Assembly: GCA_034005175.1 (NCBI GenBank)
Contig: JAVEVF010000001.1
Coordinates: forward strand, 1-45,167
Direction: 5' to 3'
DNA length: 45,167 nucleotides
From: Coriobacteriia bacterium
GTDB taxonomy: Bacteria > Actinomycetota > Coriobacteriia > Anaerosomatales > SLCP01
Numbering within the stretch: the first letter of the stretch is position 1; each line of letters starts with the position of its first letter. The position numbers and the translations under genes were made by a program. Of the stretch, positions 1-31,620 are shown piece after piece. Below the pieces are notes generated by a model. It was not told the DNA's origin. It searched no databases and saw nothing but the letters and a program-made list of their open reading frames with translations.

Positions 1-413
1 CCCCGCCGGCATCACCGCCCCGATGACCGGGCGCACCTCCGTCGCCAGTCTCGCACGGTGCACCTGCGCGATGGATGCAGCAGCTACCGGCTCGTACTCA
101 AACGATGCGAAGAGCGTGTCCAACGGGCGCCCGAACTCTCGCTCGATGACCGCCACGATCTCATCGGCTGGCAGTGGGGGTACTCGGTCCTGGAGCTGTT
201 CGAACTCGAACACGTACTCCGGAGGCACGAGATCCGGTCTGACAGAAGCGATCTGCCCGAGCTTGACGAACGCTGGCCCGAGATCTTCAAGAGCCAGCCG
301 CGTCGCCTTGGCAAACGCCGCGCGCCGCACTGCGCTAGGTGCGAGACCAAAGCGCGCCTGCGGCAACGCTCGCAGCCAGTGGGATGCGAAGGTCCGGACG
401 ATAGCGTTGCTGC
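1..413 (-). CDS. ABC1/UbiB-family atypical kinase, N-terminal part (continues beyond window start)
   Basis: Absent from the ORF track because it has no stop in the window. My translation from GTG at 413 reads VSRRSNAIVRTF...LEDLGPAFVKLGQIASVRPDLVPPEYVFEFEQLQDRVPPLPADEI...AAASIAQVHRARL. These are classic ABC1-domain signatures. AGGGAG lies just upstream of the GTG. Confidence 0.75.
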
Positions 414-432
414 GTCTCGACACCGCTGCTCC

Positions 433-786
433 CTATCTGTCAGCTGGCTCGTCGTCCTCGGCAAGCGCCGCGTCAAGCGAGGCTTGCATCGACTCAAGAC
501 GGCCTCGCAACTCGGCGACTTCAAACAGGAGGTCATCGAGTTTCGACTCGACATCGGCCTTCGAACCGGGCGGTTCCATCTCACCCGATGCCAGCTTGGC
601 CTTCAGCCGCTCCTTCTCCGCCGAGATCATGGCTGACAAGCCATCCACGAACGCTTCCGGGCCTGCCTCCATGCTGCCAGGGGCTTGGTCCTCGCCGCGT
701 ACCACTGCAGCCTTCCATCCTTCATCGGCCGTCTCGTGGATTAGAGCCCAGGCCGCCAGGAACTGCATGAACTGATCCTCGGCCAC
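433..786 (-). CDS. hypothetical acidic coiled-coil protein (117 aa)
   Basis: GTG start preceded by GGAGGTGGAAGC. The C-terminal half is heptad-like (AEKERLKAKL...LLFEVAELRGRLESMQASL). It sits directly upstream of and co-directional with the ABC1 kinase. No family recognised. Confidence 0.55.
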   Translation of the reverse strand: MAEDQFMQFLAAWALIHETADEGWKAAVVRGEDQAPGSMEAGPEAFVDGLSAMISAEKERLKAKLASGEMEPPGSKADVESKLDDLLFEVAELRGRLESMQASLDAALAEDDEPADR

Positions 787-870
787 GCTTCCACCTCCGT
801 CTGGAGTCGCTCACCGATATCCTATACGTAGAGTTCATGCCCGGAGCCGCGGCTCCTACACTTCAGCACA

Positions 871-3273
871 TCATGGTTTGCGAGTCAGCAGGCGCATCCC
901 ATTGAAGATCACGAGCAGCGAGACACCCGTGTCTGCGAATACCGCCATCCATAGGGTCGCAACCCCTGCCATGGCGAGTGCCAACACTGCACCTTTGACT
1001 GTGACAGACAGGGCTACGTTCTGCCGGATGATGCTCACTGTGCGCCGTCCGAGCGCCAAGAATCTCGGAATCTGCATGAGGTCATCAGACATGAGAGCCA
1101 CGTCCGCTGTCTCAAGTGCCACGTCACTACCCGCAGCCCCCATGGCGATCCCGAGGTCAGACGCTGCCAGCGCAGGGGCGTCATTGATGCCATCTCCGAT
1201 CATGGCCACGGGACCGAACACCCGCCGCAGATCATCGACAGCTTCGGCCTTCTCGTGGGGCAGCAGCCGGGCCTTGTACTCGCTGACCCCTGACTGAGCT
1301 GCGATAGCGGCGGCTGTACGCTCGTTGTCGCCGGTAAGCATCACGCAGTGCTCCACGCCTCCTGCCCGCAGGCGCTCGATTGAGTCCAGCGCCTCATCCC
1401 GCACCTGATCGGCTACTCCGATCACGCCGATCGCACGCCCTTCCTCCGCAAGTACAAGGACCGTGCGCCCCTCCTCTTCGAGGCCCCTCACCACGGCGCC
1501 AGCATCGTGCTGCGCACGGTGGTCTTCTGCTGCAAACTCGAGGGTGCCCACCGCGTAGGAGACGCCATCGACGACACCTCGGACGCCACCACCCAACACG
1601 TCCTCGTAGCGTGTGACGCGCGCACGGTCACACTGCGGACCAGCTGCCTTCACCACGGCACGTGCCAGCGGGTGGTTGTTGTGTGCCTCGAGGTTGCCTG
1701 CAAGCGCGATCACGCGAGAGGGGTCTGCGCCATCGAGAGGGATGACATCGGTCACCTCAGGCCGACCGGATGTGAGCGTTCCGGTCTTGTCGAAGGCCAC
1801 CACCTTGACGCGCGCCGCCGTCTCCAGATGGATGCCGCCTTTCACCAGCACACCGTCGCGTGTCGCGCGGGTGATAGCCGAGACGATGGAGACCGGCGTC
1901 GAGATGACAAGCGCACACGGGCACGAGATCACGAGTAGGACAAGCGCACGGTACAGCCACACGTCAAACGCTCCCCACGAAGCCCCAAGCGCTGCACCCA
2001 CCAACGGAGGCACCACGGCGATGCCCGCCGCCAACACCACGACGGCAGGCGTGTAGTATCGTGCAAATCGGTCGACGAGCTGTTGTGAGGGCGCCCGTGA
2101 CCCTTGCGCCTCCTCCACAAGGTGGACGATGCGCGCGAGCGTGGACTCTGCCGCCCTCGAGGTCACGCGCACCTCAAGATGCCCGCTTGTGTTGAGCGAC
2201 CCTGCGTACACGACATCCTGAACGCTCTTGTTGACCGGCACCGACTCACCGGTGATGGGCGACTCGTCGACCGCAGACATGCCGCTTTCAACGATCCCGT
2301 CAAGCGGGATACGCTCACCTGGCCGCACGGAGATGAGCTCACCTGGCAGGACTCCAGACGCCAGGACTTCGCGCTCTCGGCCCTCGCGCGATGTGCGAGC
2401 CACTGGTGGGCTGAGCTCCATCAGGTCACGAATCGAGCGGCGTGTGCGTGCCAAGGAGCGCGATTCAAGCAGTCCGCCCAGTGAGAAGAGGAAGACCACC
2501 ACTGCCCCCTCGGCCCACTGCCCGATAGCCGCCGCACCGATCACAGCGATGGTCATGAGCACGTTCATGTCGAGCACATGCGCACGAACAGACGCCAACG
2601 CGCGGCGCAAGATAAGCGAGCCGCCGCTCGCAGTGGCAGCTGCGAACGCCATCACAGAGGCCGTGTTCGCCCACCCTGCCGCAGCCCTGCTCAGCACCCA
2701 TGCCAGCACGATGAGTGCTCCGGATACGGTGGTTGATAGCGTGTGGCCATGCACCTCCCACCAGCTAGGCGCGATGGGCACCTCGACCTCTACGACCTCA
2801 GGAGTCATCAATGGCTCGATACGATAACCGGCAGAGCGCACGATCTCCAGAGCACGAGTACGCGGATCGCTCTGAGAATCATACTCAAGCACCATGAGTC
2901 CACTTGCGAAGTTGACGTCGGCAGAGATGACTCCAGGGATACGCTTTACGGACTTGGCCACGGTCCGTGCGCAGTCGGGTCAATCCAGGCCGCTAAGCCG
3001 ATAGGACACGTGTGCCACGCCGGCACCGATCTCCAGGGCTAGTGTTTCAACCGCCGAGCGCAATACCTCCTCAGGCACCTCGTTGGGATCGTAGGTGACA
3101 GAGATCGTCCGGCCATCGGGATCAATGAGAGCGCGATGCACCCCTTCCATCGCGGTGACAGCCACGCGCAACCGCTCGTCACACTCCGCACACTGCACCT
3201 CATCGCCCAGAGGTGACGCAAGCGCGACCTCGGCGGTCTGAAGTGGTGTCATCGAAGCTGACTCGATGCTCAT
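871..3273 (-). CDS. cadA: P1B-2 type (Zn/Cd/Pb) heavy-metal translocating P-type ATPase, read through one in-frame TGA at 2980-2982 (about 800 codons)
   Basis: Track ORFs 871-2961 and 2980-3273 share one frame and are separated only by TGA plus 6 codons. Motifs: SCPCALVISTP, DKTGTLT, GDGINDAP, and TM8 WMAVFADTG as in ZntA/CadA. The N-terminus has a CAEC domain and then YRLSGLD-TGA-PDCARTVAKSVKRIPGVISADVNF, which aligns with the ZntA-type motif GMDCxxCA. The ATG at 3273 overlaps the arsR-type stop (ATGA). Confidence 0.85.
2940..2973 (-). other. candidate bacterial SECIS-like stem-loop downstream of the in-frame UGA
   Basis: RNA UGCGC-ACGGAC-[CGUGGCCAA]-GUCCGU-AAA-GCGUA. The upper stem is 6 bp (2963-2968 with 2948-2953). 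The lower stem is 5 bp (2969-2973 with 2940-2944), with a 3-nt AAA bulge between them. The stem starts 6 nt after the UGA and the 9-nt apical loop starts 18 nt after it. The loop contains GU/GG. Confidence 0.45.
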
Positions 3274-3644
3274 CGACGCTCCCCTGCGTGCGCAAGCCCT
3301 TGGGCAAGCAAGCTCTCTACGTGCGCATCGGCGAGCCGGTACACCACGTGCTTCCCGTCGCGTTTGGAGGTCACAAGACCCCTATCACGCAACAGGCGAA
3401 GCTGGTGGCTCGCGGCCGACTGCGTGACACCGATGGCAGCAGCGAGATCGCAGACACACTGGTCGCCAACGGAAAGCACCCAGAGAATGCGCAGGCGCGT
3501 GGGGTCAGAGAGCGTGTCGAAGATGCGTGCCGTCGACTCGAAATGAGCGGCATCGGGAAGCTCTTCTTCTCCATGAACAATCGGCTGCGGGCCGCTGGCC
3601 ACAGAACCGCAAGAGCGGTGAGGCTTATATGAACGTGTGCTCAT
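3270..3644 (-). CDS. ArsR/SmtB-family metalloregulator (CadC/ArsR-like, CVC site)
   Basis: FDTLSDPTRLRILWVLSVGDQCVCDLAAAIGVTQSAASHQLRLLRDRGLV is the winged-helix core, with the alpha3 CVCD metal site. I place the start at ATG 3644 (MSTRSYKPHRSCGS...) because a consensus promoter sits immediately upstream. The track start at 3749 looks over-extended. Confidence 0.85.
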   Translation of the reverse strand: MSTRSYKPHRSCGSVASGPQPIVHGEEELPDAAHFESTARIFDTLSDPTRLRILWVLSVGDQCVCDLAAAIGVTQSAASHQLRLLRDRGLVTSKRDGKHVVYRLADAHVESLLAQGLAHAGERR

Positions 3645-3655
3645 ACGTTCATATA
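3626..3655. promoter_or_regulatory. 11-8-11 perfect inverted repeat, candidate ArsR/SmtB operator
   Basis: TATATGAACGT (3626-3636), 8 nt, ACGTTCATATA (3645-3655). It overlaps the -10 element and the ATG of the regulator. The TATA..GAAC / GTTC..TATA arms resemble known SmtB/CzrA/CadC-type operators. Confidence 0.6.
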
Positions 3656-3680
3656 TATGCTGCACGGCGAGCGCTGTCAA
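3652..3680 (-). promoter_or_regulatory. sigma70-type promoter giving a probably leaderless arsR-ATPase transcript
   Basis: Minus strand reads TTGACA (3680-3675), a 17 nt spacer, TATATA (3657-3652), 7 nt, then ATG (3644). Confidence 0.6.
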
Positions 3681-3801
3681 CCTCGTCCGTGGCCACCCTG
3701 GTGAAAGAGACGTGCTCGAACCCGATGGCCGCCGTGCCCGCATGGCCAACCTGGCTCGCGTGTTCTTCCTCTGCTATGTGTCGGGCAGCGGCCTGCTCGG
3801 C

Positions 3802-4659
3802 TTACTCGGCTTCTACCGCCACAGCGATGCCGGGAGCGGGTGAGCCATGCGCATCTCCCGCATCGTCATGGCCGTGGCCGGGCTTGACCTCTAGCTCTCG
3901 GAGACCGAAGAAGTCCAGGCTGCACGGAATGTCGATGGTGAGCGAGAGATAGAAATGCGCGGTCACCATGAGGATGAAGAGCCAGTTGATGACGTAGTGG
4001 AACATGCGCATCCACCAACCCGCGAGGTCCGTGCTGCCGAGCAACGCGCCCAACCACCAGCCCACGAGCAGATCACGCGGACTGTAACCAAAGATGAATG
4101 GAACGGTGACAAGCGCGAAGCCAGTGAAGACCTGCGCAACCATCAGCACAAGGAAGATGAGGTAGACCAGCTTCTGCATCACGTTGTACTTCGCGATGTG
4201 CGGCTTGTAGTTGCTGAGGTACGCGTAGAACTTCGCCACAGCGATCAAGCTCGCCATATCCTCTCGGCCAACCGCGAATTCGCGCCAGTCCTTGCCCTTG
4301 GAGAAGAACGCGTACCAGATTCTCCAGAGCAGCGTGATCGTCACGATGACCATCGCAACGTAATGCACGTAACGCATCGCCACTCTGCCCCCATCGAAGA
4401 AGGGGAACCGAATGTACATGCCGGTGAATGCGAGGGCGAGGATGCACACCATGTGGATGAAGTGAATGACCTTGGGCTGGGCGGGAATAGCCACATCGTG
4501 ATCGGGCCACTGGCCCTCGAACCATCTCTTCTGGAACCTGCCGGTGATGATGTCGAAGGCGAAATGCACGGTGAGCGCCACAAGCATGAAGGCGTACACC
4601 ACGACAAACGCCACATCGATCCATACGTTGAGCACGGTCAAGTCCATGATGTCCCCCAT
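3802..4659 (-). CDS. polytopic membrane protein, cytochrome b561 / Ni-Fe-hydrogenase b-type cytochrome-like, with a His/Asp-rich C-terminal tail
   Basis: Several hydrophobic helices carry conserved-looking His residues (HFAFDI, HFIHMVCILA, YVHYVAMV, FHYVINWLFILMVTAHFY). The tail is KPGHGHDDAGDAHGS. The family assignment is from memory of PF01292-like proteins and is not verified. Confidence 0.5.
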   Translation of the reverse strand: MGDIMDLTVLNVWIDVAFVVVYAFMLVALTVHFAFDIITGRFQKRWFEGQWPDHDVAIPAQPKVIHFIHMVCILALAFTGMYIRFPFFDGGRVAMRYVHYVAMVIVTITLLWRIWYAFFSKGKDWREFAVGREDMASLIAVAKFYAYLSNYKPHIAKYNVMQKLVYLIFLVLMVAQVFTGFALVTVPFIFGYSPRDLLVGWWLGALLGSTDLAGWWMRMFHYVINWLFILMVTAHFYLSLTIDIPCSLDFFGLRELEVKPGHGHDDAGDAHGSPAPGIAVAVEAE

Positions 4660-4877
4660 ACTCCGATCGCCGGGTACCCGACATCCCCGTCGCCTGTGTG
4701 GACTCGGCGACTGAAAACCGCCAACGTGTGCTGTTCTCTGTTTCGAGGCGTTTCGCGCTATTCCTGCTGTGTCTGCCTCAAGACACCGCTAAGACGGTAT
4801 CACGAGCTCGGGTCGTGGTCGATGGGGGAATATTCATTCTGATGCATTGAATCAATCCTCTGAAGGTGGAAGCGATC

Positions 4878-5483
4878 ATGGAGCCAATCGCGAAGCGCAC
4901 CGTAGTGAGTGTCGTGTCTGCTGTGGTGGCAACCGCCCTGATCGTCGGGCTGGCGGTCTGGGTGGTAATGAACGGCCAGCTCATACGTGTCAAGACACAG
5001 GCCGAGCAGGACGCCGCCCGCATAGAGACGCTGGAGTCCGAGGTGCAATCATTGACCGTGGCGCTGTCAGCCAAGGTCGAAGAACCCGCTGCTGAAGATG
5101 GTCGCTTCTTCTGCTTCATCACTCAGGCGCGTTGGTCGGGAAGCCGTCCCGAGCTCACCGTGGACTACGCACAGCTTCTTACCGGTGCGCAAGCTGCTGC
5201 TGCCGCTGCCGCTGCGGGCGAGGAGTCCCCTCCCCCAAACGATTACTTCATCGTGAACACAAACCCGCGCTTGCGAACATTTCCCGCAGATTCCGCGATG
5301 AGGGTGCGCATGACGAGCTCCGCCGAGGGCTCTGTGCCAGACGGTTACAGCATGACGTTTGGCGAGTGGTTTGATGCGTACTCTGGAATGTCGGGGACCT
5401 TCCCCACCATAAGCAAGGTCCCGTATTGGATCACGATCAGGACCGGGACGATCACCGCTATCGAAGAACAGTACCTGCCGTAA
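4878..5483 (+). CDS. membrane-anchored hypothetical protein (N-terminal TM helix, coiled coil, poly-Ala linker, C-terminal globular domain)
   Basis: GAAGGTGGAAG lies 7 nt before ATG 4878; the track's GTG at 4866 is also possible. The TM helix is VVSVVSAVVATALIVGLAVWVV. No family recognised. Confidence 0.6.
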   Translation: MEPIAKRTVVSVVSAVVATALIVGLAVWVVMNGQLIRVKTQAEQDAARIETLESEVQSLTVALSAKVEEPAAEDGRFFCFITQARWSGSRPELTVDYAQLLTGAQAAAAAAAAGEESPPPNDYFIVNTNPRLRTFPADSAMRVRMTSSAEGSVPDGYSMTFGEWFDAYSGMSGTFPTISKVPYWITIRTGTITAIEEQYLP

Positions 5484-5508
5484 ACCTTGCGGGGATCCAA
5501 GCGAAACG

Positions 5509-7578
5509 TCAGCGACGTCTACGCGCGCCGTATCCGCTGCCTTTGCGTGCGCCTTGCTTGAGACGCCCAAGCACCTCATCGGCGGTCGTGGACTCGATCT
5601 CAGTACGCAGCTTCACCACTTGGTCACGCAACCGCGCGGCTTGTTCGAAATCCAGTGAATCGGCGGCCTGCGCCATGTCCTCCTCCAACGTCGAGATCAA
5701 CCGCATGACCTCATCTCTGGGCAGTTTCGCAAGTTCGCGGGCTGCTTCTGCAGCGGTGGTGAGCTCGGCCTCCCCTTCCCGCACGTACTGCACGATATCG
5801 GCGATGGCTTTACGAATCGTCTGAGGCTCGATGTCATGCGCCTCGTTGTATGACATCTGCAATGCGCGGCGTCGGTTGGTCTCTTCGATGGCGAGGCGCA
5901 TCGAGTCCGTGACTCGATCGGCATACATGATGACCTGGCCTGAGACATTCCGAGCCGCTCGCCCGATTGTCTGAATGAGGCTGCGGTAGTTGCGCAGAAA
6001 GCCTTCCTTGTCGGCATCAAGGATGGCAACGAGAGAGACCTCAGGGAGATCGAGACCCTCACGCAGCAGATTGATGCCGACGAGACAATCAAACGTGCCG
6101 AGACGCAGGTCTCTGAGGATCTCCACACGCTCAAGCGTGCCGATGTCCGAGTGCAGGTAGCGCACCTTCAGCCCCTGCTCGAAGAGGTAATCGGTGAGGT
6201 CCTCCGCCATGCGCTTCGTGAGTGTCGTGACAAGCACGCGCTCCCCGTGTTCCACCCGCTGTCGCACCTCTTCGATGAGGTCGTCGACCTGGCCTTTCAT
6301 GGGCCGAACAACGACCTCGGGGTCAACGAGACCTGTGGGTCGGATGATCTGCTCCACCACCTGCGTGGAGACTGAGAGTTCGTAATCACCCGGCGTGGCG
6401 GACACGTAGATGAACTGGCGCACCCGCTGCTCAAACTCGTCGAAACGAAGCGGCCGGTTGTCGAGCGCGCTCGGCAGCCGAAAGCCGTGCTCTACAAGCG
6501 TGAGCTTGCGGCTGCGGTCCCCTTCATGCATGCCGCGAATCTGCGGGACAGTGACATGCGACTCATCAATGAAGCACACGAAATCGTCGGGGAAGTAGTC
6601 GATGAGCGTGTTTGGCGGGTCGCCCGCGGCGCGCCCATCGAGATGACGTGAGTAGTTCTCGATGCCCGAGCAGAATCCCATCGTCTCAAGCATCTCGAGA
6701 TCGTAGTTCACACGCATCTCGAGCCGTTGCGCTTCCAAGAGCTTGCCCTCGGCTTTCAGTTCTCCGAGGCGTACTCGCAACTCCTCCCGGATGGTGTTCA
6801 AGGCAGCCGCGAGCTTGTCTGGCGCCGTGACATAGTGGGTGGCCGGCCAGATAGGAAGCCACTTGTAGCCAAGGAGGACCTCTCCGGTGAGCTGGTCGAC
6901 CTCGGCGATGGACTCGACTTCGTCTCCGAAGAACTCCACACGCACCGGATGGTCGGCATATGGAGGGAAGACATCGATGACATCCCCGCGCACGCGGAAA
7001 CTGCCGCGCTGTAGCTCGTAGTCGTTCCGGTCGTACTGTATCTCGATGAGGTCGCGGATGAGGCGATCACGCTCATAGTCCTCGCCTGCTGAGAGAAACG
7101 CCGCCATGCCTGCGTAGTCCTCCGGCGACCCGATTCCGTAGATGCATGACACGCTTGCGACAACCACGACGTCGCGCCGAGAGAGCAACGCCGCCGTCGC
7201 TGCATGACGAAGCTTCTCCACCTCCTCGTTGATGGATGCGTCCTTTTCGATGAAGGTATCGGTGGTGGGGACGTAAGCTTCTGGCTGGTAGTAATCGTAG
7301 TAGGAGACGAAGTACACGACTGCGTTATCGGCCATGAACTCGCGCAGCTCGGCGGCAAGCTGCGCTGCGAGGGTCTTGTTGGGCGCCATGATGAGCGCAG
7401 GCCTCTGAACCTCTTCGATGACCTTGGCCATCGTGTAGGTCTTCCCTGAGCCGGTGACTCCCAGCAGGGTCTGGTAGCGCTGCCCTTCGCGAATCCCGTC
7501 CGCAAGCTCATCGATGGCTTTCGGTTGGTCTCCGGCAGGCTCGAATGCTGCTTGCACCTTCAGCCGGATGTTGCTCAC
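5509..7578 (-). CDS. uvrB: excinuclease ABC subunit B
   Basis: [26 protein letters not shown], helicase motifs and the C-terminal UVR domain ([20 protein letters not shown]). The likely start is GTG 7578, preceded by GGAGCGGAGG and overlapping the slt stop (GTGA). The track start at 7599 is an alternative. Confidence 0.97.
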
Positions 7579-8174
7579 TGGTTGCCTCCGCTCCACCACG
7601 GGAACGCGTCTGGGTAGATCTCCTCATACCGCTCTTTCGCCCGCACGACGCGAACAACAAAATGGCGCGTCTCAGGAAACGTAATGGCATCACGTATATC
7701 CCCACCCTGCGCCACCCAGTCATCAGCGTTGCGCAAGCCCGCGTTGTATGCGGCAAGCGCGACCTCGACCTCGTGGTAGCGTTCCACGAGGTAGCGCAGG
7801 TAGGCGGTCCCGTACTCGATATTAGTGGCGGGGTCTGCAAGCGATGCGCCGCTCACGAACTCCTCGCTTACGATGGCACGCGCGCGCAAGTCCTCTGCGG
7901 TCGCGGGCATCACCTGCATGAGCCCCACCGCGCCAACACGTGACACCCGCTCGGGGTCGAACCCTGACTCGGCGTTGATCACGGCGGCCACAAGATAGGG
8001 GTTCACCTCATGACGCATCGCCGAGGCAGAGATCTCCTCCGTGAACGCAAGCGGGTAGTAGAGACGCTGAAACCATGCTGGCCCGCGCAGGGCGCTGAAC
8101 GCAAGCAGGCCGAAGCCCATCACCACGAGCAGCAGGGCCACTCGGTGGGCTGCCCAAGGCCTACTGCGGCGCAT
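7575..8174 (-). CDS. lytic transglycosylase (SLT domain), N-terminal membrane anchor
   Basis: [30 protein letters not shown]...AYNAG is the SLT catalytic motif set. The N-terminus has a hydrophobic helix. Confidence 0.85.
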
Positions 8175-8772
8175 CAGCTATCACCTCGTCCCAGTAGCGC
8201 TCGAGCGCTTCCTGGAACTCGGTGAGGCTGCCCTCGTTGCGAATCACTTCATCAGCCATCTCTTCACGCTGCGCATCGGTGGCCTGGCATCTGATGCGAG
8301 CGCGCACGTCGGCCTCGTCCATGCCTGCCTCCACCGCGCGCCCGATACGCAGATTCTCAGGCGCCGAGATGGCAAGCACACGCTCGGCGAGCTCACCGAA
8401 GACCGGTGCCTCCACGAGAAGGGGGACATCAAGCACGACTACCCGCGGCGGATTGAGCAGCAGCCCCATGTCTCTTAGCCCCGGGCCGACTTCGCGCAAG
8501 ATAGCGGGGTGCACGATAGCGTTGAGCCGTCGCGCGCGTTCCGGTGATGAGAAGACTGTCGCTGCAAGCTTGCGACGATCGATCGTGCCACCGTCTTCAA
8601 GCACCCCTGCACCGAACTCCGCCACGATCTGATCGTGCACCGGCATCCCGGGTGCGAGATGCCGCTTGGCGATGTCGTCGAGCGAGAGCACGACCGCACC
8701 GCGCGCACGGAACACCTCCGCGGCGGTGGTCTTGCCGGCGCCGATACCGCCGGTGAGCGCGATCACGTACAT
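8161..8772 (-). CDS. coaE: dephospho-CoA kinase
   Basis: MYVIALTGGIGAGKTT P-loop and typical length. It lies between rpsA and uvrB, as in Actinomycetota. Confidence 0.9.
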   Translation of the reverse strand: MYVIALTGGIGAGKTTAAEVFRARGAVVLSLDDIAKRHLAPGMPVHDQIVAEFGAGVLEDGGTIDRRKLAATVFSSPERARRLNAIVHPAILREVGPGLRDMGLLLNPPRVVVLDVPLLVEAPVFGELAERVLAISAPENLRIGRAVEAGMDEADVRARIRCQATDAQREEMADEVIRNEGSLTEFQEALERYWDEVIADAPQ

Positions 8773-8792
8773 GTCTCTCCTCCGTTGTGAGC

Positions 8793-8827
8793 GGGGCCGG
8801 ACGTCACGTCTCCGCGCGTCCGGCCCC
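8793..8827 (-). terminator. GC-rich 11-bp hairpin between rpsA and coaE (terminator/attenuator or processing site, no U-tract)
   Basis: GGGGCCGGACG (8793-8803) and CGTCCGGCCCC (8817-8827) are perfect complements with a 13-nt loop. It is located between the rpsA stop (8857) and the coaE start (8772). Confidence 0.4.
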
Positions 8828-8856
8828 CTTCACTCATCACTCAAGAGTAGAGCCGC

Positions 8857-10227
8857 CTATTCCGCAGACTCGCTCTCCTCGGACGCCTCGGCGGGCTCCT
8901 CGGCAGCGGGGGCTTCCTCGACAGGTGCTTCCTCGGTGGCGAGTTCCTCAGCCACTTCTGCGACCTCGGGAATCTCTGCCACCTCCGCCTCTGTCTCGGC
9001 GGGCTCCTCGGTGGCGGGGGCTTCCTCTGCTACCTCTGCTACCTCGACCACCTCTGCTACCTCGGCTACCTCGGCCTCTTCTGCAGCCTCGGGAACCTCG
9101 ATCTCCGCGACCTCAATCACAGTCCCGAGCGCCTCGGCTGCATCCTTCATCGACAGCGATATGCGGCGACGGTCGAGATCGACCTCCTTGACCTTGACCA
9201 TGACGTTCTCGCCGACGGCAGTGACTTGCTCGGGTGTCTCGACATGCTCCTTGGCCATCTCAGAGATGTGCACAAGACCCTCGACACCGTCACCAAGCTC
9301 TACGAACACGCCGAAGGGCACCAACTTCGTCACGCGGCCCTCGATGATCGATCCGACGGGGAACTTCTTGACCAGCTCCTGCCAAGGATCGGGTTGCGTC
9401 TGCTTGAGGCCAAGCGAGATGCGCTCGCGGCTCATATCCACATCGAGGACCTTCACCTCGACCTGCTCACCGACCTTGACGACCTCGGAGGGATGGTTGA
9501 CGTGGCTCCACGAGAGTTCCGAGATGTGCACGAGCCCGTCGATGCCGCCAAGGTCCACGAACGCACCGAAGTCCACGATGCTTGACACCGTACCTGGCAG
9601 GATCTGGCCTTTGGCGAGCTTCTCCAGGATGGCCGCCCGCTCGTGCTTGCGGCCTTCCTCGAGCACAACGCGACGCGAGAGCACGACGTTGTTGCGATTG
9701 CGGTCCATCTCTATGACGCGAGCCTCCAGCCGGTCGCCCATGAACGCAGCAAGATCCTTGACTCGGCGCAGGTCGACAAGGGACGCCGGCAAAAAGCCGC
9801 GCAAACCGATGTCCAGGATGAGACCGCCCTTGACGACCTCGATGACCTCGCCCTCTACGATCTCGGCGGCGTTGAACTTGTCCTCGATCTTCGACCACGC
9901 GCGTTCGTACTCGGCGCGCTTCTTGGAGAGGATGAGCCGGCCGTCCTTGTCCTCCTTCTGAAGGACGAGAGCCTCGACCGAGTCGCCGAGAGACACGACA
10001 TCAGCAGGATCGACGTCCTTGCGGATGGAGAGCTCACGGGCCGGGATGACACCTTCGGACTTGTAGCCGATGTCGAGAAGCACCTCGTCACGTTCAACCT
10101 TGACGATCGTGCCGCTGACGAGATCACCTTCATCGAAGTCGGTCATGGTGCCGTCGATGAGGGCGTGCATCTCCTCGTCGGTGTACTCCTCGTGCTGAAT
10201 GACCGTGCCGTTGTCCTGCTCACTCAC
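8857..10227 (-). CDS. rpsA: 30S ribosomal protein S1 with a repetitive acidic C-terminal tail
   Basis: Four S1 domains (GTIVKVERDEVLLDIGYKSEG..., GEVIEVVKGGLILDIG..., GTVSSIVDFGAFVDLGGIDGLVHISE, GRVTKLVPFGVFVELGDGVEGLVHISE). GTG start. The tail is rich in E/A/V repeats. Confidence 0.97.
   Translation of the reverse strand: MSEQDNGTVIQHEEYTDEEMHALIDGTMTDFDEGDLVSGTIVKVERDEVLLDIGYKSEGVIPARELSIRKDVDPADVVSLGDSVEALVLQKEDKDGRLILSKKRAEYERAWSKIEDKFNAAEIVEGEVIEVVKGGLILDIGLRGFLPASLVDLRRVKDLAAFMGDRLEARVIEMDRNRNNVVLSRRVVLEEGRKHERAAILEKLAKGQILPGTVSSIVDFGAFVDLGGIDGLVHISELSWSHVNHPSEVVKVGEQVEVKVLDVDMSRERISLGLKQTQPDPWQELVKKFPVGSIIEGRVTKLVPFGVFVELGDGVEGLVHISEMAKEHVETPEQVTAVGENVMVKVKEVDLDRRRISLSMKDAAEALGTVIEVAEIEVPEAAEEAEVAEVAEVVEVAEVAEEAPATEEPAETEAEVAEIPEVAEVAEELATEEAPVEEAPAAEEPAEASEESESAE
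8866..9110. repeat. imperfect in-frame tandem/dispersed repeats encoding the (E-A/V-A-E)n tail of S1
   Basis: The unit ctcggcgggctcctcggNNgcgggggcttcctc occurs twice (about 8888 and about 8994). ctgctacct/cggctacct units are reiterated at 9030-9075. Confidence 0.6.
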
Positions 10228-10275
10228 TGTGGGGTGGCCCCTTTCCTGAAACGGGGCCCTCCGGTCATGTACAGT

Positions 10276-10330
10276 CGTCGCCTACAGGTCCGCCGATCGC
10301 CCAGATCGGCATGGTCCGTCGCCTACAGGT
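10276..10330. repeat. 14-nt exact direct repeat flanking a 7-bp hairpin in the rpsA 5' leader region
   Basis: CGTCGCCTACAGGT occurs at 10276-10289 and 10317-10330. The hairpin GCCGATC/GATCGGC (10292-10310) lies between the copies. Confidence 0.5.
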
Positions 10331-10443
10331 GTCATGCATACATGTCGGGGGCCAATATTGCCATGACCGCAGGATCCTTCTCCCCGCAGCCAAACCTATA
10401 TGTTACTCGACCGTGTCGGGTGGCGCCAGTACATTTGGCATGC

Positions 10444-13107
10444 TCACTTAGCGCTCGCCCAGTCCGGCCCGCTCGCGACATCCACCACCAGAGGAACGGA
10501 GAGACCCACGACGCCCGACATCGCCTCGCGCACAAGCGCCGAGAGCGCGTTGATCTCTTCGGGTGGCGACTCGAACACGAGCTCATCGTGGACCTGCAGA
10601 ACAAGCCGGGAGGCAAACCCCTCTTCTCTGAGCCGGCGGTCGACTTCGATCATGGCGAGCTTCATGATATCGGCAGCGGTACCCTGCATCGGATGGTTCA
10701 TGGCGGTGCGCTCGCCGAACGAGCGCAGGTTGAAGTTGCTGCTCCTGAGTTCTGGGATTCGGCGCTTGCGGCCGAACATGGTGGTGGATACGCCCGTGCG
10801 GTGCGCTTCGGAGACACACTCGTCAAGAAACGTCCGCACTCCCGGATAAGCCGCGTAGTAACGGTCGATCATCCCTTGTGCCTCTGCCCGCTCGATCTTA
10901 AGCGTCTCCGCAAGCCCGTGAGCGCTCTGCCCGTACACGATGCCGAAGTTCACCGCTTTTGCGCGGCTGCGCTGAGCTGTCTCCACCTGATCGATGGCAA
11001 CGCCGAACACTCGTGCGGCAGTGGCTGCATGGAAATCCTCCCCGCTGGTGAATGCTTCGATAAGCCCCTCGTCGCCGGAAAGATGAGCGAGGACGCGAAG
11101 CTCGATCTGCGAGTAGTCGGCGCTCACCATCTGGTGTCCGTCCTCGGCGGGGATGAACGCCGCACGGATGCGGCGTCCGAACTCGGTGCGCACCGGGATA
11201 TTCTGCAGGTTGGGATTGCTGCTGGACAGACGACCCGTCGCGGCCACTGTCTGGTTGAAGGTGGTGTGCAGTCGCCCGTCCTCGGCGATGAGGCGTGGCA
11301 GCGCCTCCAGGTATGTCGAGGTGAGCTTGGCGAGCTCTCGGTAGTCGATGATGAGCTGCGCTATCGGGAAGTCCGCTGCCAGCGTAGTAAGCACCGAGGC
11401 ATCGGTCGAATAACCCGTCTTCGTGCGCTTCGAGGGTGGCAGGCCGAGCTTGTCGAAGAGCACTTCGCCGAGCTGTTTGGGCGAGTCGATATTGAACTCG
11501 GCGCCAGCCTCCTCGAAGATCCGCGCACGCAGCTCGGCGATGCGAGCGCGGGTCTCCTCGGCAAGCGACGTCAGGACTCCGACATCCACCCCGACGCCAA
11601 CGCGCTCCATGCGGGCAAGCACAGGCACAAGCGGCATCTCTATACGAGTGAAACACTCGGCCGAGCCATCCTCGGCAAGCCTTGTTTGAAGAACAGGCGC
11701 GAGCGCCGCAGCAGCGTGGGCCTCGATGGCAGCCCTCCCCTCCTGCGGGCTCGCCTCCCGCAAAGGTGCACCAAGATAGTCCGCAGATAGTGCGTCAAGC
11801 GCATACGAGGAACGGTTCGACTCGAGCAGGTACCCGGCGATCCCGCAATCGAACAGCCTCGTGGGATCCGCTGCATCAAACGAAAGATCGCATCGTCCGT
11901 CTGAAACGGGCACACACATCTCGTGAAGAAGCGGCTTGAGGTCACCGGTCGCGACACGACCTGTGCCCAGCAGCGCCGCGAACCCCTCAGCTGACTCCTC
12001 GCCGCCGAGAAGCGCCACCTCCTCACCGTGCGCGACCGCGAGGTCCCGGCGCACGGCAAACAGCGACTCGGCCGTTCCGTCATCGAGCGCCACTCCAAGC
12101 CACTCACTGGAAGCAGCCCACGATCTGATGTGCTCGGCGGCATCCCGCCCCTCAAGAATCACGCTGGTGCGAACCTCGCCATCTGAACCCTTGTGCTCAT
12201 CGCCGCCGACAGCGGCCTGTGGCATGCGCGCAGCGTCATCCGTCGCAAGGACGCGCTCAAGAAGGGAAGTGAATCGCAACTCGCCGAAGGCCTCAGCCAC
12301 GCGCGATGAGTCGAAACGCCCCCAGTGCACAGAGGCGAGGTCGATGTCGAGCGGGACGTCCCTGCGGATGGTGGCAACTGTGCGGCTGACTCTCGCGTCT
12401 GCAGCGTGCGCGACGAGGTTCTCGCCGAGTCTCCCTTTGATAGTGGGTGCAGCCTCCAGCACAGCATCAAGGCTCCCGTACTGCGCCATGAGCTTAGCCG
12501 CGGTTTTCTCGCCCACGCCCGGGACACCCGGGATGTTGTCGGAAGGATCGCCCTTCAACCCGAGATAGTCGGTGATCTGCGCAGGCGTCACCCCATAGCG
12601 CTCTAGAACTGCGGGCGGATCGTACACCACGATGTCAGTGACGCCCTTACGAGTGCTCACCACATTCACGGTGTCGCTCACGAGCTGCAGCGCATCACGA
12701 TCGCCGGTCACGAGCAGGGCTCGCGTCGCTGACTCCTCTGCCAGCCGCGCGATAGTGCCGAGCACGTCATCGCCCTCCCAGCCCTCCACCTCCAGGATGG
12801 GGACATCAAGCGCCTCGAGCACTCGTTTGACCATAGGGAACTGGACCTTCAACTCATCAGCGGTCGGAGGGCGATGGATCTTGTAGCGCTCAAGAGCCTG
12901 GGTTCGAAAGGCCGGCGTGCCCTTGTCAAACGCCACGACCACGCCATCTGGACGCATCTCCTGCACGAGCTTCACCAGCATGGAGATGAAGCCGAACACC
13001 GCGTTCGTAGGCCTGCCGTCGGGTGCGGTCATCGTGGGGGGGAGCGCATGGAATGCGCGATGGAGCAGACTGTTGCCGTCGATCACGGCGATGGTGCGAG
13101 ACGTCAT
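10444..13107 (-). CDS. polA: DNA polymerase I
   Basis: 5'-nuclease N-terminus (VIDGNSLLHRAFHALP), a 3'-5' exonuclease-like middle region and pol motifs (DYSQIELRVLAH, RSRAKAVNFGIVYG, QVHDELVFE). Confidence 0.97.
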   Translation of the reverse strand: MTSRTIAVIDGNSLLHRAFHALPPTMTAPDGRPTNAVFGFISMLVKLVQEMRPDGVVVAFDKGTPAFRTQALERYKIHRPPTADELKVQFPMVKRVLEALDVPILEVEGWEGDDVLGTIARLAEESATRALLVTGDRDALQLVSDTVNVVSTRKGVTDIVVYDPPAVLERYGVTPAQITDYLGLKGDPSDNIPGVPGVGEKTAAKLMAQYGSLDAVLEAAPTIKGRLGENLVAHAADARVSRTVATIRRDVPLDIDLASVHWGRFDSSRVAEAFGELRFTSLLERVLATDDAARMPQAAVGGDEHKGSDGEVRTSVILEGRDAAEHIRSWAASSEWLGVALDDGTAESLFAVRRDLAVAHGEEVALLGGEESAEGFAALLGTGRVATGDLKPLLHEMCVPVSDGRCDLSFDAADPTRLFDCGIAGYLLESNRSSYALDALSADYLGAPLREASPQEGRAAIEAHAAAALAPVLQTRLAEDGSAECFTRIEMPLVPVLARMERVGVGVDVGVLTSLAEETRARIAELRARIFEEAGAEFNIDSPKQLGEVLFDKLGLPPSKRTKTGYSTDASVLTTLAADFPIAQLIIDYRELAKLTSTYLEALPRLIAEDGRLHTTFNQTVAATGRLSSSNPNLQNIPVRTEFGRRIRAAFIPAEDGHQMVSADYSQIELRVLAHLSGDEGLIEAFTSGEDFHAATAARVFGVAIDQVETAQRSRAKAVNFGIVYGQSAHGLAETLKIERAEAQGMIDRYYAAYPGVRTFLDECVSEAHRTGVSTTMFGRKRRIPELRSSNFNLRSFGERTAMNHPMQGTAADIMKLAMIEVDRRLREEGFASRLVLQVHDELVFESPPEEINALSALVREAMSGVVGLSVPLVVDVASGPDWASAK

Positions 13108-24924: not shown

Positions 24925-25398
24925 CTATGACGCGATGGCCTGAAGTCGTCGCTCTTCCAGTCTCCGCTCGAATTCAGTCGGAGACAAGTCGCCGATCGAT
25001 GAATGGCGCCGGTAGGTGTTGTAGAAGCCCTCGATATAGCGGAAGAGCGCGAACCTCGCCGCGTCCCTCGTTCTGAAGGTGTGACGGTGCACGCACTCCT
25101 TCTTGATGGTCGCCATCACCGACTCGGTGACCGCATCGTCTCCCGGAGCGCCGACGCTGCCCATCGAGGCCAGGATCCCCGACTCCCGAAGCGTCCTGCC
25201 AAACGCCATGGATCGGTATTGAGCGCCGCGATCCGAGTGATGTATCAGTCCGGCAGCAGGCCTGCGCAGTATGGTCGCCATCGAGAGCGCGTCGACGACG
25301 ATGTCTGCCTTGAGGTCGTCTCGCATCGACCAGCCCACGATCTTCTTCGTGGCTGCCTCGGTGTTGTAGTCGACCGAGACACCGCCTGTCCCCCACAT
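24925..25398 (-). mobile_element. IS3-family transposase (OrfB/rve) C-terminal fragment with no N-terminal half and no OrfA
   Basis: KKIVGWSM...LIHHSDRGAQYRS...SMGSVGAPGDDAVTESVMATIKKE...YIEGFYNTYRRHSSIGDLSPTEFE carries the DDE/rve core signatures. The upstream boundary is approximate. Confidence 0.75.
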
Positions 25399-25789
25399 GC
25401 CGCCCGTTATCGACTTGAGCTGGTCGCCATCGTCATAGGTATACTCAGTGGTCCAGCTGCCTGGCCCGATCTTGAGGGTCGAGGCGACGGGCAGGTTCTT
25501 TGCGCCGTCCCATGTGAGCGCCCGTGAGACGTCGACCGCTTCAGGCACGAGAGCGAAGTGTGCCGTGCTCGTAGTGCTTCGAGTCCTCGGTGCGTTTCTC
25601 GACGATCTCGCGCTCGACGGGGGAAGGCTCGCGCTCGACGGGGGGAGCCGAGGCGGATGTCTCGACCGGGAGGTCCAGGGGCGGGGCGGCGAGAGCCGCA
25701 GGGGCTCCTTCGAGGAGCGGTGAGGTCAGAAGGACGAGAGACAGCACGCAGGAGACAGCGCGACCCAGATGCTCGCGGACCCGTTTCAC
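25399..25789 (-). pseudogene. frameshifted N-terminal remnant of a secreted YD-repeat (RHS/WapA-like) protein, fused to the IS3 fragment
   Basis: GAGAGGAGGG then GTG 25789 opens VKRVREHLGRAVSCVLSLVLLTSPLLEGAPAALAAPP (signal peptide), then ...EIVEKRTEDSKHYEHG and a stop at 25541. The adjacent frame continues ...LTWDGAKNLPV...GSWTTEYTYDDGDQLKSITGG (one YD-repeat unit) and runs directly into the transposase sequence. Confidence 0.45.
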
Positions 25790-28444: not shown

Positions 28445-29689
28445 TCAGTCGCCGGCCAGACCGGCCTCCCTCACGATATCCATGTCCTTGTCGCCTCGTC
28501 CTGAGACATTCACGACCACCACACCATCAGGTCCGAGTTCGGGCGCGAGGCGGGGCAGCAGCGCCAGAGCGTGGCTGCTCTCGATAGCGGGGATGATGCC
28601 CTCGGTGCGGGTCAACAATGCGAACGCCTCGAGCGCCTCGGTGTCGGTGACGGCTTCGTAGCGCACAAGGCCCTCATCCTTCAGATAGCTGTGCTCGGGG
28701 CCTACACCTGGGTAGTCAAGACCTGCCGAGATGGAGTACGCCTCCGCTGGGTTGCCCTCATCGTCCTGCAGCATGTAAGAGTAGAAACCGTGAAGCGTGC
28801 CAGGGGCGCCCTGTGTGAGTGACGCGCCATGCTTGCCGGTCTCGACTCCGAGCCCCGCTGCCTCGGCACCGAATAGACGAGGCCGCTTGTCGGCAGGCAC
28901 CTCACGGAGGAAGGGATAGAACATCCCGATAGCGTTGCTGCCCCCGCCGATGCATGCGATGACCGCGTCGGGCAGGCGCTCCCCGTGACCTTGAAGCTGT
29001 AAGAGGGTCTCCTCACCGATGACCTTCTGAAACTCCCGCACGAGCGCTGGGTAGGGATGGGGCCCCACAGCGCTTCCCAGGACGTAGAAGGTGTCATCAA
29101 CGCGGTCCACCCAGTGGTTCAACGCTGCCGTCACGGCATCAGCGAGCGTTCCGGTCCCCTCGGCGACAGAGACGACCTCGGCACCGAGCAACCGCATCTT
29201 GTAGACGTTCAGCGACTGGCGGCGGATATCCTCAGTGCCCATGAAGACCGCGCACTCAAGCCCCATGAGCGCTGCGGCGGTAGCGGTGGCGACGCCGTGC
29301 TGCCCCGCTCCGGTCTCGGCGATGACGCGCTGCTTTCCCATCCGGCGTGCGAGCAGACACTGCCCGATGGTGTTGTTGATCTTGTGAGCACCTGTGTGGT
29401 TGAGGTCCTCACGCTTCAGGTACACACCGCCGAGGCCCACGGCCTCAGCGAGCCGGTCGGCTCGATACAGCGGCGACGGACGGCCCACGTAGTCGCGCAG
29501 AAGCGCGCCGAACTCCTCGTGAAACGCGGGGTCGGCAAGCGCGGCGTGGAAGGCCTCCTCGAGCTCGGTTAGCGCTGGTTCCACCGTCTCGGGGACGAAC
29601 GTGCCCCCGTAGGGCCCGAAGAAGCCCCTGGCGTCGGGGCTTGAGTATGCCATCTCAACGGAGGGCATGAAGACGTCGCTCACACTCAC
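28445..29689 (-). CDS. trpB: tryptophan synthase beta chain (canonical TrpB1 type)
   Basis: [14 protein letters not shown] (PLP lysine), GAGQHG and [11 protein letters not shown] start after GAGGAGG. Confidence 0.95.
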
Positions 29690-29792: not shown

Positions 29793-31139
29793 TTATGCGC
29801 CTTCGCACATCGAACCAGCGGCGAAATCATAATCCTCCAGCTGACCGGTGTTGTACGCTTCATACGCCGAGAGGTCGAAGTGACCGTGACCGGATAAGCC
29901 GAACAGGATGGTGCGGTCCTCACCGGCTTCCTGTGCGGCAAGCGCCTCGTCGATCGCGGCACGGATTGCATGGCTGCTTTCTGGTGCCGGCAGGATGCCT
30001 TCTGTGCGCGCAAACGTCACGGCCGCGTCGAAACATGCGTTCTGATGCACCGCGACGGCTTCGATCTCGCCTTCCTTGCGCAGCAGCGAGACCAGTGGCG
30101 AATCGCCGTGATAGCGCAGACCACCTGCATGGATGCCCGCAGGCACGAAGTCGTGCCCGAGCGTGTACATCAGCATCTTCGGCGTCATGCCGGCCTCGTC
30201 GCCAAGGTCGTAGCGGTAGTCGCCGGCGGTTAGCGTCGGGCAGGCCTTGGGCTCCACCGCAAGCAACCGCGCCTTGGTGTGCCCGTCGAGTCGACGCTTG
30301 TAGTACGGGAAGGTCAGACCAGCGAAGTTCGAGCCGCCACCGATACACGCGACGACGACGTCCGGCTCGGCCTGTGCCATCTCCATCTGAACGATGGCTT
30401 CCTCCCCGATGATGGTCTGGTGCAGACAGACGTGATTGAGCACGCTTCCCAGACAGTAGTGGGTGTCCTCGCGCATGGCAGCATCCTCGACAGCTTCTGA
30501 GATGGCGATGCCGAGGCTGCCAAGCGAGTCCGGGTCGAGATCGAGCACGTGACGTCCGGCATTTGTGCGGGTGGATGGCGACGAGATGACCTCGGCACCA
30601 TAGGTCTCCATGAGGATGCGCCGGTAGGGCTTCTGGTCATAGGAGATGCCCACCATGTACACGACACACTCCATACCGTACAGCGCACATGCGATAGAAA
30701 GCGCACTCCCCCACTGCCCCGCGCCGGTCTCGGTGGAGATGCGCTTGATGCCCTCCTGCTTGTTGTAGAAGGCCTGTGGGATGGCGGTGTTGGGCTTGTG
30801 GCTGCCAGCCGGAGACACGCCTTCGTACTTGTAGAAGATCTTCACGCCCTCGGGCAGGCCGAGATGCTTTTCGAGCTGACGGGCGCGGTTGAGCGGTGAG
30901 GGGCGATACGTCCGGTAGACGGCAAGGACCTCCTCGGGAATCTCGATGTAGCGCTCCATCGAGACCTCTTGTTTGATGAGCTCCATCGCAAAGAGGGGGG
31001 CGAGGTCTTCTGGGCCGACGGGTTGATCAGTGGCGGGATGCAGCGACGGGGCAAGCGGTGTGGGCAGATCGGGGTTGATGTTGTACCACTTCGTCGGCAT
31101 CTGTCTTTCATCGAGCACGTAGCGTGTCCTGTCTGCCAT
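29793..31139 (-). CDS. TrpB2-type tryptophan synthase beta-like PLP enzyme
   Basis: [26 protein letters not shown]... is a typical TrpB2 N-terminus. Also SHKPNTA (PLP Lys), GAGQWG and GGGSNFAG. The start is set at ATG 31139 after GAAGGAGGAG. The track start at 31310 would run into the T-box terminator. Confidence 0.9.
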
Positions 31140-31290
31140 GTCGCTCTCCTCCTTCACTCCTACGTCCTGCTTCTCCGATGTGCTCGGATCTCGTGCCCAT
31201 GCGTGGCCCTGTCGCGCTTGCCCGACATGCAGGCTGCACGCGAACGCAGACATGACGCACATCCCTTCTGAGAGGGAGTGAGGAGCCCAG

Positions 31291-31328
31291 AAATACAAAT
31301 AACCCCTCATCCCTCAAGGGACGAGAGG
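31291..31328 (-). terminator. intrinsic terminator of the T-box leader
   Basis: RNA CCUCUCGUCCC-UUGA-GGGAUGAGGGG forms 11 bp including G-U pairs, followed by UUAUUUGUAUUU. The 5' arm can alternatively pair within the antiterminator that contains the T-box sequence. Confidence 0.8.
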
Positions 31329-31620
31329 TCATCTCGCGGTACCACCCTTGTTGCTCACCTCTTACGAGGTAAGCCACTTGTCCTGACGGTACGTGGACTG
31401 GACTGCGCCGCTGTAATCAATCGTGCGGCGCTGCAATCCGAATACCCGGCCCCTTGTATCGGTGGGGATCCGCCGGGACTAATGGGCGCTTTGCACCGTT
31501 GTCCTCGGTACCTCAGGGGTCCATTCCCTCCGGTCGCTCACGTCGGTTTCCACCAGCCACCGACTCTCTCCGCTTCGCGTCCGGGGTACTCCTCCCCCTC
31601 ATGGGCTCATATCCGATTGT
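31291..31620 (-). promoter_or_regulatory. T-box riboswitch leader, tryptophan specifier (UGG)
   Basis: On the minus-strand RNA, in the canonical order: AGAGAG bulge (31569-31564), distal loop GGCUGGUGGAAA (31558-31547), specifier loop GAA-UGG-A (UGG at 31523-31521), T-box sequence AACAAGGGUGGUACCGCGAG (31352-31333), then the terminator. A candidate promoter lies upstream: TTGCGG (31657-31652), an 18 nt spacer, TACACT (31633-31628). Confidence 0.85.

Follow-up and report, generated by a model that had tools for sequence, protein, structure and literature searches.

We analysed a stretch of 45,167 nucleotides from a Coriobacteriia bacterium (contig JAVEVF010000001.1 of assembly GCA_034005175.1), hereafter referred to as the window, in which a gene coding for a P1B-type heavy-metal ATPase contains one in-frame UGA followed directly by an RNA hairpin. 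This hairpin is very probably a functional bacterial selenocysteine insertion sequence (SECIS) within the coding region of the ATPase gene. A first-pass annotation, made by reading the window alone, had described a SECIS-like bulged hairpin at this site; the reading is upheld here by comparison of orthologues that carry TGA with orthologues that carry a cysteine codon, and not by folding energy.

The ATPase gene (871..3273, minus strand; Zn/Cd/Pb-type, with a CPC motif) extends over 800 codons from an ATG at 3273 to a stop at 871, and on translation its frame is unbroken but for a single UGA at codon 98 (2980..2982, minus strand), the predicted selenocysteine (Sec) codon. With Cys substituted at the UGA, the product matches the Pfam domains E1-E2_ATPase, Hydrolase and HMA as well as NCBIfam TIGR01525 (589.6 bits, against a cutoff of 346.25), and its best named models are Zn/Cd/Pb pumps. 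The UGA stands at the first Cys position of the HMA CxxC motif (GLD-U-PDC-A), and the Pfam match to this domain (PF00403; 2824..3003, minus strand; residues 91-150, E = 1.1e-18) spans codon 98. Read from 2982 on the minus strand, the RNA is UGA CCC GAC UGC GCA CGG ACC GUG GCC AAG UCC GUA AAG CGU AUC, which translates as U-P-D-C-A-R-T-V-A-K-S-V-K-R-I; the hairpin codes for the CxxC loop of the HMA domain and for the beginning of helix alpha-1. Pfam recognises two HMA stretches in the ATPase, and a second, degenerate HMA-like stretch with a C-A-E-C motif (3190-3201, minus strand; residues 25-28) lies upstream of the HMA domain with the predicted Sec.

Orthologues carrying TGA and cysteine codons

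Orthologous DNA came from genomes and metagenomes and from look-ups of exact proteins, and the codon at the motif was read in each sequence; the metagenome scan returned only relatives of at most 57% identity. We found TGA within GLD*PDCAR in 31 Coriobacteriia-type sequences, the window included, and TGC or TGT within GLDCPDCAR in eight near orthologues; a Cys codon is also present in most distant ones. The UGA is aligned with the Cys of homologues, forming a Sec/Cys pair.

Applied to minimum free energy (MFE) folds of these orthologues, the generic bacterial SECIS (bSECIS) model accepts 22 of the 31 TGA sequences, with longer windows picking alternative folds. As MFE-based detection of this kind is noisy and has a background of about 16% (see below), we replaced it with a position-specific measure, namely the best uninterrupted helix closing a loop of 3-9 nt that contains nucleotides 22-23, counted from the U of the UGA. 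These two nucleotides are the GU of a Val codon and are retained in 31 of 31 TGA orthologues. A helix of at least 6 bp is formed by 30 of the 31 TGA orthologues and by none of the eight Cys orthologues, which share the CPDCAR(T/S)V context; of these eight, one reaches 5 bp and the others 3 bp or fewer. The TGA orthologue that falls short, L008, has an irregular hairpin closed by a GGUC loop, the sole loop of that sequence; some hairpin can be formed at the site in all 31. The median helix energy is -8.8 kcal/mol in TGA orthologues and -1.35 kcal/mol in Cys orthologues (P = 5e-5 by Mann-Whitney test, uncorrected for phylogeny). Where the MFE fold of an orthologue shows the helix, the spacing between UGA and loop is 17-18 nt. 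The first-pass annotation had proposed to check whether the hairpin accompanies TGA and is absent with TGC or TGT, and this is the pattern observed.

The stem sequences differ by subclade. The window has the CGGAC/GUCCG type, which closes a 9-nt loop and is laid over the peptide T-V-x-K-S, whereas the CGCGCC/GGCGCG type closes a 3-nt loop and is laid over A-V-G-A-S. The GCGCAC/GUGCGU type has a 5-nt loop, and the CGCACC/GGUGCG type embodies a double change from G-C to A-U in which an Ala to Thr replacement is matched by a synonymous change of the Gly codon from GGC to GGU. Across subclades the nucleotide at which the 5' arm starts is constant, and the 3' arm occurs in two registers. We regard this comparative evidence, together with the pattern of synonymous change that follows, as decisive for a predicted SECIS.

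Synonymous constraint downstream of the UGA

Constraint was measured in 19 TGA sequences of the window's subgroup (median pairwise protein identity 58%) as the synonymous difference rate, that is, the share of comparisons in which identical amino acids use different codons. This rate is 0.50 across the gene and 0.00-0.14 at codons +5 to +10, which are Arg CGG, Thr ACC, Val GUG, Ala, Lys AAG and Ser UCC, and among all 8-codon windows of the gene the eight with the lowest rates fall at positions -1 to +6 relative to the Sec codon. In the second TGA subgroup, codons +5, +6 and +9 show no synonymous variation at all. Among Cys orthologues, the rate at the same codons is 0.62 compared with 0.54 gene-wide, and the Arg is encoded variously by CGC, CGG, CGA and CGU. 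Because these codons are frozen in TGA genes and free in Cys genes, the conservation is exerted at the RNA level and tied to the TGA state, and is not attributable to low divergence.

The bases flanking the UGA are also constrained. The Asp codon directly 5' of it (2983..2985, minus strand) reads GAU in every one of the 31 TGA orthologues and GAC in every one of the eight Cys orthologues, and the base following the UGA in TGA orthologues is always C. GAU before the UGA and C after it may constitute an extended recoding or anti-termination context. In Bacillota TGA genes the codon before the UGA is ACC or CAC, such that GAU is specific to the present lineage.

Structure of the hairpin

The hairpin (2973-2940, minus strand) is returned by RNAfold as both the MFE and the centroid fold, at -13.4 to -13.5 kcal/mol. 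It has 11 bp in total, and its stem and loop are separated from the UGA by 6 nt and 17 nt, respectively; the bulged 11-bp fold proposed by the first-pass annotation is thus reproduced exactly, and its distances (a stem from 6 nt and a loop from the 18th nt) are correct. In the MFE fold, the lower helix pairs a 5' arm UGCGC (2969..2973, minus strand) with GCGUA at 2944-2940, the latter preceded by an asymmetric AAA bulge at 2947-2945 (bulge and 3' arm together, 2940..2947, minus strand). The upper stem-loop, ACGGAC CGUGGCCAA GUCCGU (2948..2968, minus strand), has a 6-bp helix of 2968-2963 with 2953-2948 and a 9-nt loop, CGUGGCCAA, at 2962-2954, which reads C-G-U-G-G-C-C-A-A; GU occupies loop positions 2-3. 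This stem-loop starts 11 nt after the UGA and has a fold energy of its own of -6.6 kcal/mol.

A lower helix is formed in most orthologues, but in other sequences or registers (for example, CUGC/GCAG), and the geometry of the AAA bulge is not conserved. As the lower helix begins only 6 nt after the UGA, and neither its sequence, its register nor its bulge is conserved, we assign function to the upper stem-loop (2968-2948), which is the probable functional element and SECIS core; the AAA bulge is probably incidental. The first-pass annotation had counted a bulge in the upper stem among the SECIS-like features, and in this respect it has to be amended, because the AAA is situated in the 3' strand, where it separates the upper from the lower helix, and the conserved core is confined to the upper stem-loop.

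In the published bSECIS description (PMC13188914), the loop has 3-9 nt and carries G at one of its first two positions, as a rule with G or U next to it; the upper stem has 4-16 bp, 16-37 nt separate the UGA from the loop, and the MFE is at most -7.5 kcal/mol. A second account gives the bacterial SECIS a stem of 6-8 bp and places a conserved G of the loop some 20 nt downstream of the UGA (PMC4605307). The present hairpin has a loop of 9 nt, an upper stem of 6 bp, a spacing of 17 nt and an MFE of -13.4 kcal/mol, and as previously noted its loop has G at position 2 followed by U; this G is 19 nt after the UGA. The hairpin thus agrees with every one of these bSECIS rules, in line with the fit noted by the first-pass annotation. 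However, 225 of the 1435 TGA trinucleotides (15.7%) in the window, which has a GC content of 62%, pass the generic criteria as well, and agreement with the bSECIS description is for this reason weak evidence when taken alone.

Evidence weighing against a SECIS

Besides this high background and the absence of a phylogenetic correction in the comparison of helix energies, several results weigh against a SECIS. The first concerns energy. Relative to dinucleotide shuffles the hairpin has z = -1.16 to -1.25, with 22-25 of 200 shuffles folding as well, and resampling of synonymous codons over the whole hairpin gives P = 0.09-0.12. The position-specific test of the upper helix, for which the loop has to hold GU at nucleotides 22-23, gives P = 0.021 under synonymous resampling. 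We calibrated the shuffle test with the SECIS of E. coli fdhF, the sequence of which was confirmed as 100% identical in fdhF of 5413 genomes; its z is -1.33, and 22 of 200 shuffles fold as well. Because an established SECIS gives a z-score like that of the present hairpin, the folding-energy test cannot distinguish a real SECIS from background, and failing it is no argument against one. The first-pass annotation had held that so good a structure is not trivially expected from codons that also have to encode a conserved helix, and had proposed synonymous shuffles as a check. By energy the structure is not exceptional (marginal for the whole hairpin, P = 0.09, and for the upper helix, P = 0.02, in a test that fdhF shows to be uninformative), whereas by comparison of orthologues the expectation is borne out.

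Covariation is thin. The stem of the window's subgroup is invariant and thus displays conservation without covariation; the single covarying pair occurs in the other subgroup, where 25 of 500 shuffles are as good. The covariation anticipated among TGA orthologues is accordingly limited to one compensatory pair outside the subgroup of the window. No hairpin match was obtained from Rfam, either in a scan of the window at gathering threshold or in a permissive scan of 2880-3040, and we saw no sign of a bacterial SECIS model in Rfam.

Seven Bacillota heavy-metal ATPase sequences, from isolates that include Evansella vedderi DSM 9768, Bacillus fonticola CS13 (complete genome CP052135) and Aquibacillus salsiterrae, have TGA at the same HMA Cys position. 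Their stems, which speak for a SECIS, are unrelated (CUGCUC-AGGUU-GAGCAG and GUGCCGC-CAAGUUGGA-GCGGCAC), start about 11-13 nt after the UGA and carry GGU or AGUU in the loop. These TGA loci are L043, L056 and L058 (each at 2974), L101 (496), L032 (2980), L096 (98) and L060 (633). One Bacillota Cys orthologue, L097 (TGT, 2680), retains the hairpin of its TGA relatives: in the 60 nt after the codon, it is identical to L032 at 57 positions and to L096 at 56 (93-95%), compared with about 89% over the gene. This is consistent with a recent switch from Sec to Cys or from Cys to Sec, with the putative SECIS still intact. The first-pass annotation had reasoned that a Cys orthologue with the same hairpin would point to simple amino-acid conservation; L097 is one such case, and there is none among the eight near Cys orthologues.

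We also searched for Sec machinery with ARAGORN, on the window and 30 loci, and with an NCBIfam scan of about 30 window genes, which gave housekeeping matches only. Neither the 45-kb window nor the flanking DNA of 30 TGA loci contained selA, selB, selD or tRNA-Sec. Apart from the ATPase gene, a search for split open reading frames (ORFs) joined by TGA gave only spurious GC-rich ORFs.

Alternative explanations

It is conceivable that the hairpin is a functionless by-product of a GC-rich genome and of the conserved peptide of the HMA CxxC loop and helix alpha-1. The z-score of only about -1.2, the P of 0.09-0.12 for the whole hairpin and the 15.7% of window TGA triplets that pass the generic rules are all in line with such an origin, and in the AVGAS subgroup helices of some stability already follow from the peptide alone (null mean -6 to -8 kcal/mol). 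A by-product of the peptide is, however, difficult to reconcile with the Cys orthologues, none of which forms the helix (0/8) despite the shared CPDCAR(T/S)V context, and which vary (0.62) at the synonymous sites that are frozen in TGA orthologues (0-0.14, compared with 0.50 gene-wide). On these comparisons the explanation is largely refuted, and we consider it highly improbable. The TGA might instead be a genuine stop, ending an N-terminal fragment of 97 amino acids (aa), with the ATPase restarting at GTG 2961 and the hairpin serving termination-reinitiation coupling or nothing at all. Termination at this point would break the HMA fold within its metal-binding motif, and the Pfam match runs across the codon; frame and amino-acid conservation are seamless on both sides in 31 independent assemblies, the UGA falls exactly at the Cys of homologues, and the first downstream start codon is inside helix alpha-1. 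The family is, moreover, a recognised UxxC selenoprotein family. That gene callers all split the gene in this way, giving truncated homologues and separate HMA genes of 76-97 aa, and that genes in the window end in TGA more often than in any other stop codon, speak for a stop, yet we assign this possibility very little credence. An alternative genetic code with TGA as a sense codon was rejected, as TGA terminates five of the seven large genes in the window.

Read-through might also occur without SelB, the hairpin promoting decoding of the UGA by a near-cognate tRNA (Trp, Cys or Arg) or acting with a non-canonical factor. The Sec machinery was not found in the window or the locus flanks, and the invariant GAU before and C after the UGA show that the local context is under selection as well, as in read-through signals. 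Against this, the geometry agrees almost nucleotide for nucleotide with that of the SelB-dependent fdhF element (stem-loop start at nt 15, GU at nt 22-23), a UGA at a metal- or redox-active Cys is a hallmark of Sec, and selenoproteins of this family are on record for 25 Sec-utilising organisms (PMC5029168). We therefore regard SelB-independent read-through as very unlikely. That an in-frame TGA has persisted in 31 independent assemblies while the sequence to either side is intact and conserved is a strong argument for read-through of the UGA, and by analogy with known selenoproteins the inserted residue would be Sec.

Proposed mechanism

The SelB system established in E. coli and Moorella provides the model for how a SECIS at this site would act. 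SelB carrying GTP and Sec-tRNA(Sec) would bind the upper stem-loop (2968-2948, minus strand) through the GU on the 5' side of its loop. With the UGA (2982-2980) in the A site, the lower helix, 6 nt downstream, would be melted, and the upper stem-loop, 11 nt downstream, would stay at the mRNA entrance and tether SelB, such that Sec-tRNA(Sec) could outcompete RF2. Sec would then provide the first ligand in the U-x-x-C metal-binding motif of the N-terminal HMA domain, and the pump would be made at its full length of 800 residues. In bacterial SECIS elements the lower helical region is reported to unwind as the ribosome nears (PMC13188914), and a poorly conserved lower helix 6 nt from the UGA fits such unwinding.

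A further reading, which we consider less likely than not, is that in this uncultured Coriobacteriia-type lineage the recoding signal extends beyond the canonical hairpin. Besides the split between GAU in Sec genes and GAC in Cys genes, it draws on the two registers of the 3' arm (9-nt loop versus 3-5-nt loops), each of which is tied to a different sequence of HMA helix alpha-1; on this reading the SECIS and the protein helix that it encodes would be co-evolving, with turnover of the SECIS inside a conserved domain. It also includes the possibility that Sec has been retained as a metal ligand lineage-wide. Sec in the regulatory N-terminal domain of a Zn/Cd/Pb-type pump would in that event point to a specific chemical role, such as handling of thiophilic Hg or Cd or redox gating, and not to sporadic substitution.

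Gene neighbourhood

A gene coding for an ArsR/SmtB-family metalloregulator (3270..3749, minus strand; Pfam HTH_5, NCBIfam NF033788) precedes the ATPase gene, and its stop overlaps the ATPase start in an ATGA at 3270-3273 (minus strand). On the basis of this overlap, regulator and pump probably form one operon, and the arrangement suggests translational coupling. The true start of the regulator is probably downstream of the TTG that gives the longest ORF, because homologues have 124-128 aa. Synteny of regulator and ATPase is conserved in the seven closest orthologues (L161-L167), which share with the window the order cytochrome b, ArsR, HMA fragment and ATPase. The shared order is longer between window positions 3802-13107 and L163 positions 1-9982, on a 370-kb contig from another sample, and comprises PolA, ribosomal protein S1, CoaE, lytic transglycosylase, UvrB, cytochrome b561, ArsR and ATPase. 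From this extended gene order shared with L163, we judge the ATPase locus to be chromosomal and vertically inherited rather than a mobile metal-resistance island.

Directly downstream of the ATPase gene there is an ORF of 117 aa without a family match (433-786, minus strand), and each of the six closest orthologous loci in which the sequence continues beyond the ATPase has an ORF of 117-120 aa at the corresponding position (for example, L161 5670-6023 and L163 12177-12530). Housekeeping genes in the window include those for UvrB, S1, PolA, GlnA, MgtE, AccA, AccD, NadE and TrpB. A T-box leader (31314-31611, minus strand; 95 bits, against a gathering score of 93) lies upstream of a gene for a TrpB-like pyridoxal phosphate enzyme (29793-31310, minus strand), which is followed by a canonical trpB (28445-29689, minus strand). 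A further ORF (24925-25548, minus strand) aligns to no more than the C-terminal region of an IS3-family transposase (profile positions 242-369 of 369) and is probably an insertion sequence remnant or one half of a frameshifted transposase.

Annotation of the gene

The 18 best database matches to the ATPase are 66-76% identical, have about 695 aa (693-710), start just after the UGA and are annotated without HMA; homologues that are full-length and include HMA reach no more than 50-57% identity. Gene calls for the window ATPase cover the 3' part only (645-696 aa; the JGI call has 645 aa), and the seven closest orthologues are called as an HMA protein of 76-97 aa and an ATPase of 695-710 aa, split at the TGA. 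The gene is thus systematically misannotated, its N-terminal metal-binding domain being called as a separate small HMA protein or lost. Recognition of the UGA and the putative SECIS would restore a selenoprotein of 800 residues here and likewise in at least 30 related assemblies and several Bacillota isolates.

The locus can also be regarded as a natural experiment, in that Sec and Cys orthologues occur in the same amino-acid context and the SECIS is overlaid on a protein-coding helix; a SECIS of this kind is missed by tests of folding energy and detected by tests of synonymous constraint.

Comparison with known systems

Heavy-metal ATPases with a UxxC motif were listed as a selenoprotein family by Zhang and Gladyshev in 2007 (PMC1976440), were recorded by Peng et al. 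in 2016 in 25 organisms and 32 proteins (PMC5029168), and appear in a 2026 review as 'Cation-transporting ATPase E1-E2' (TIGR01525) with a UxxC motif (PMC13188914). The window gene is most likely a new case of this family, well supported but ordinary, and it reveals no new mechanism. It resembles the known members in scoring above the TIGR01525 cutoff and in having its predicted Sec first in the CxxC of the N-terminal HMA domain; it differs in belonging to a Coriobacteriia-type lineage known from metagenome-assembled genomes and in that the Sec form is the rule among its closest relatives, as judged from the shared truncation point of the 18 best database matches. The less ordinary points are the GAU invariance, the two hairpin registers tied to helix alpha-1 and the systematic misannotation. 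With NCBIfam NF041115 (UxxU_metal_bind) and the HMA proteins of CopZ/MerP type, the ATPase shares an HMA fold with Sec in the metal-binding motif; however, its HMA domain scores 47 bits, below the cutoff of 95, has UxxC instead of UxxU, and is fused to a pump and not stand-alone.

At the RNA level, the hairpin agrees with all constraints of the Zhang and Gladyshev bSECIS model (bSECISearch; PMC13188914), but 15.7% of the TGAs in the window pass this model too. The closest parallel is the SECIS of E. coli fdhF, which likewise lies in the coding region directly 3' of an in-frame UGA followed by C, has an upper stem-loop of 6 bp starting at nt 15 from the U of the UGA (11 nt after the codon), and has a lower helix reaching towards the UGA, with a total energy of -14.9 kcal/mol compared with -13.5 kcal/mol here. 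Both elements have a GU on the 5' side of the apical loop, which occupies nt 23-24 in fdhF and in the ATPase gene nt 22-23. The two elements differ in their loops, of 9 nt (CGUGGCCAA) here and of 4 nt (GGUC) in fdhF, and in the upper helix, which in the ATPase gene is uninterrupted and lacks a bulged U in its 5' strand, the sole irregularity being the non-conserved AAA on the 3' side between the helices. They differ also in the host protein, which is a metal pump in the present case and a formate dehydrogenase in E. coli.

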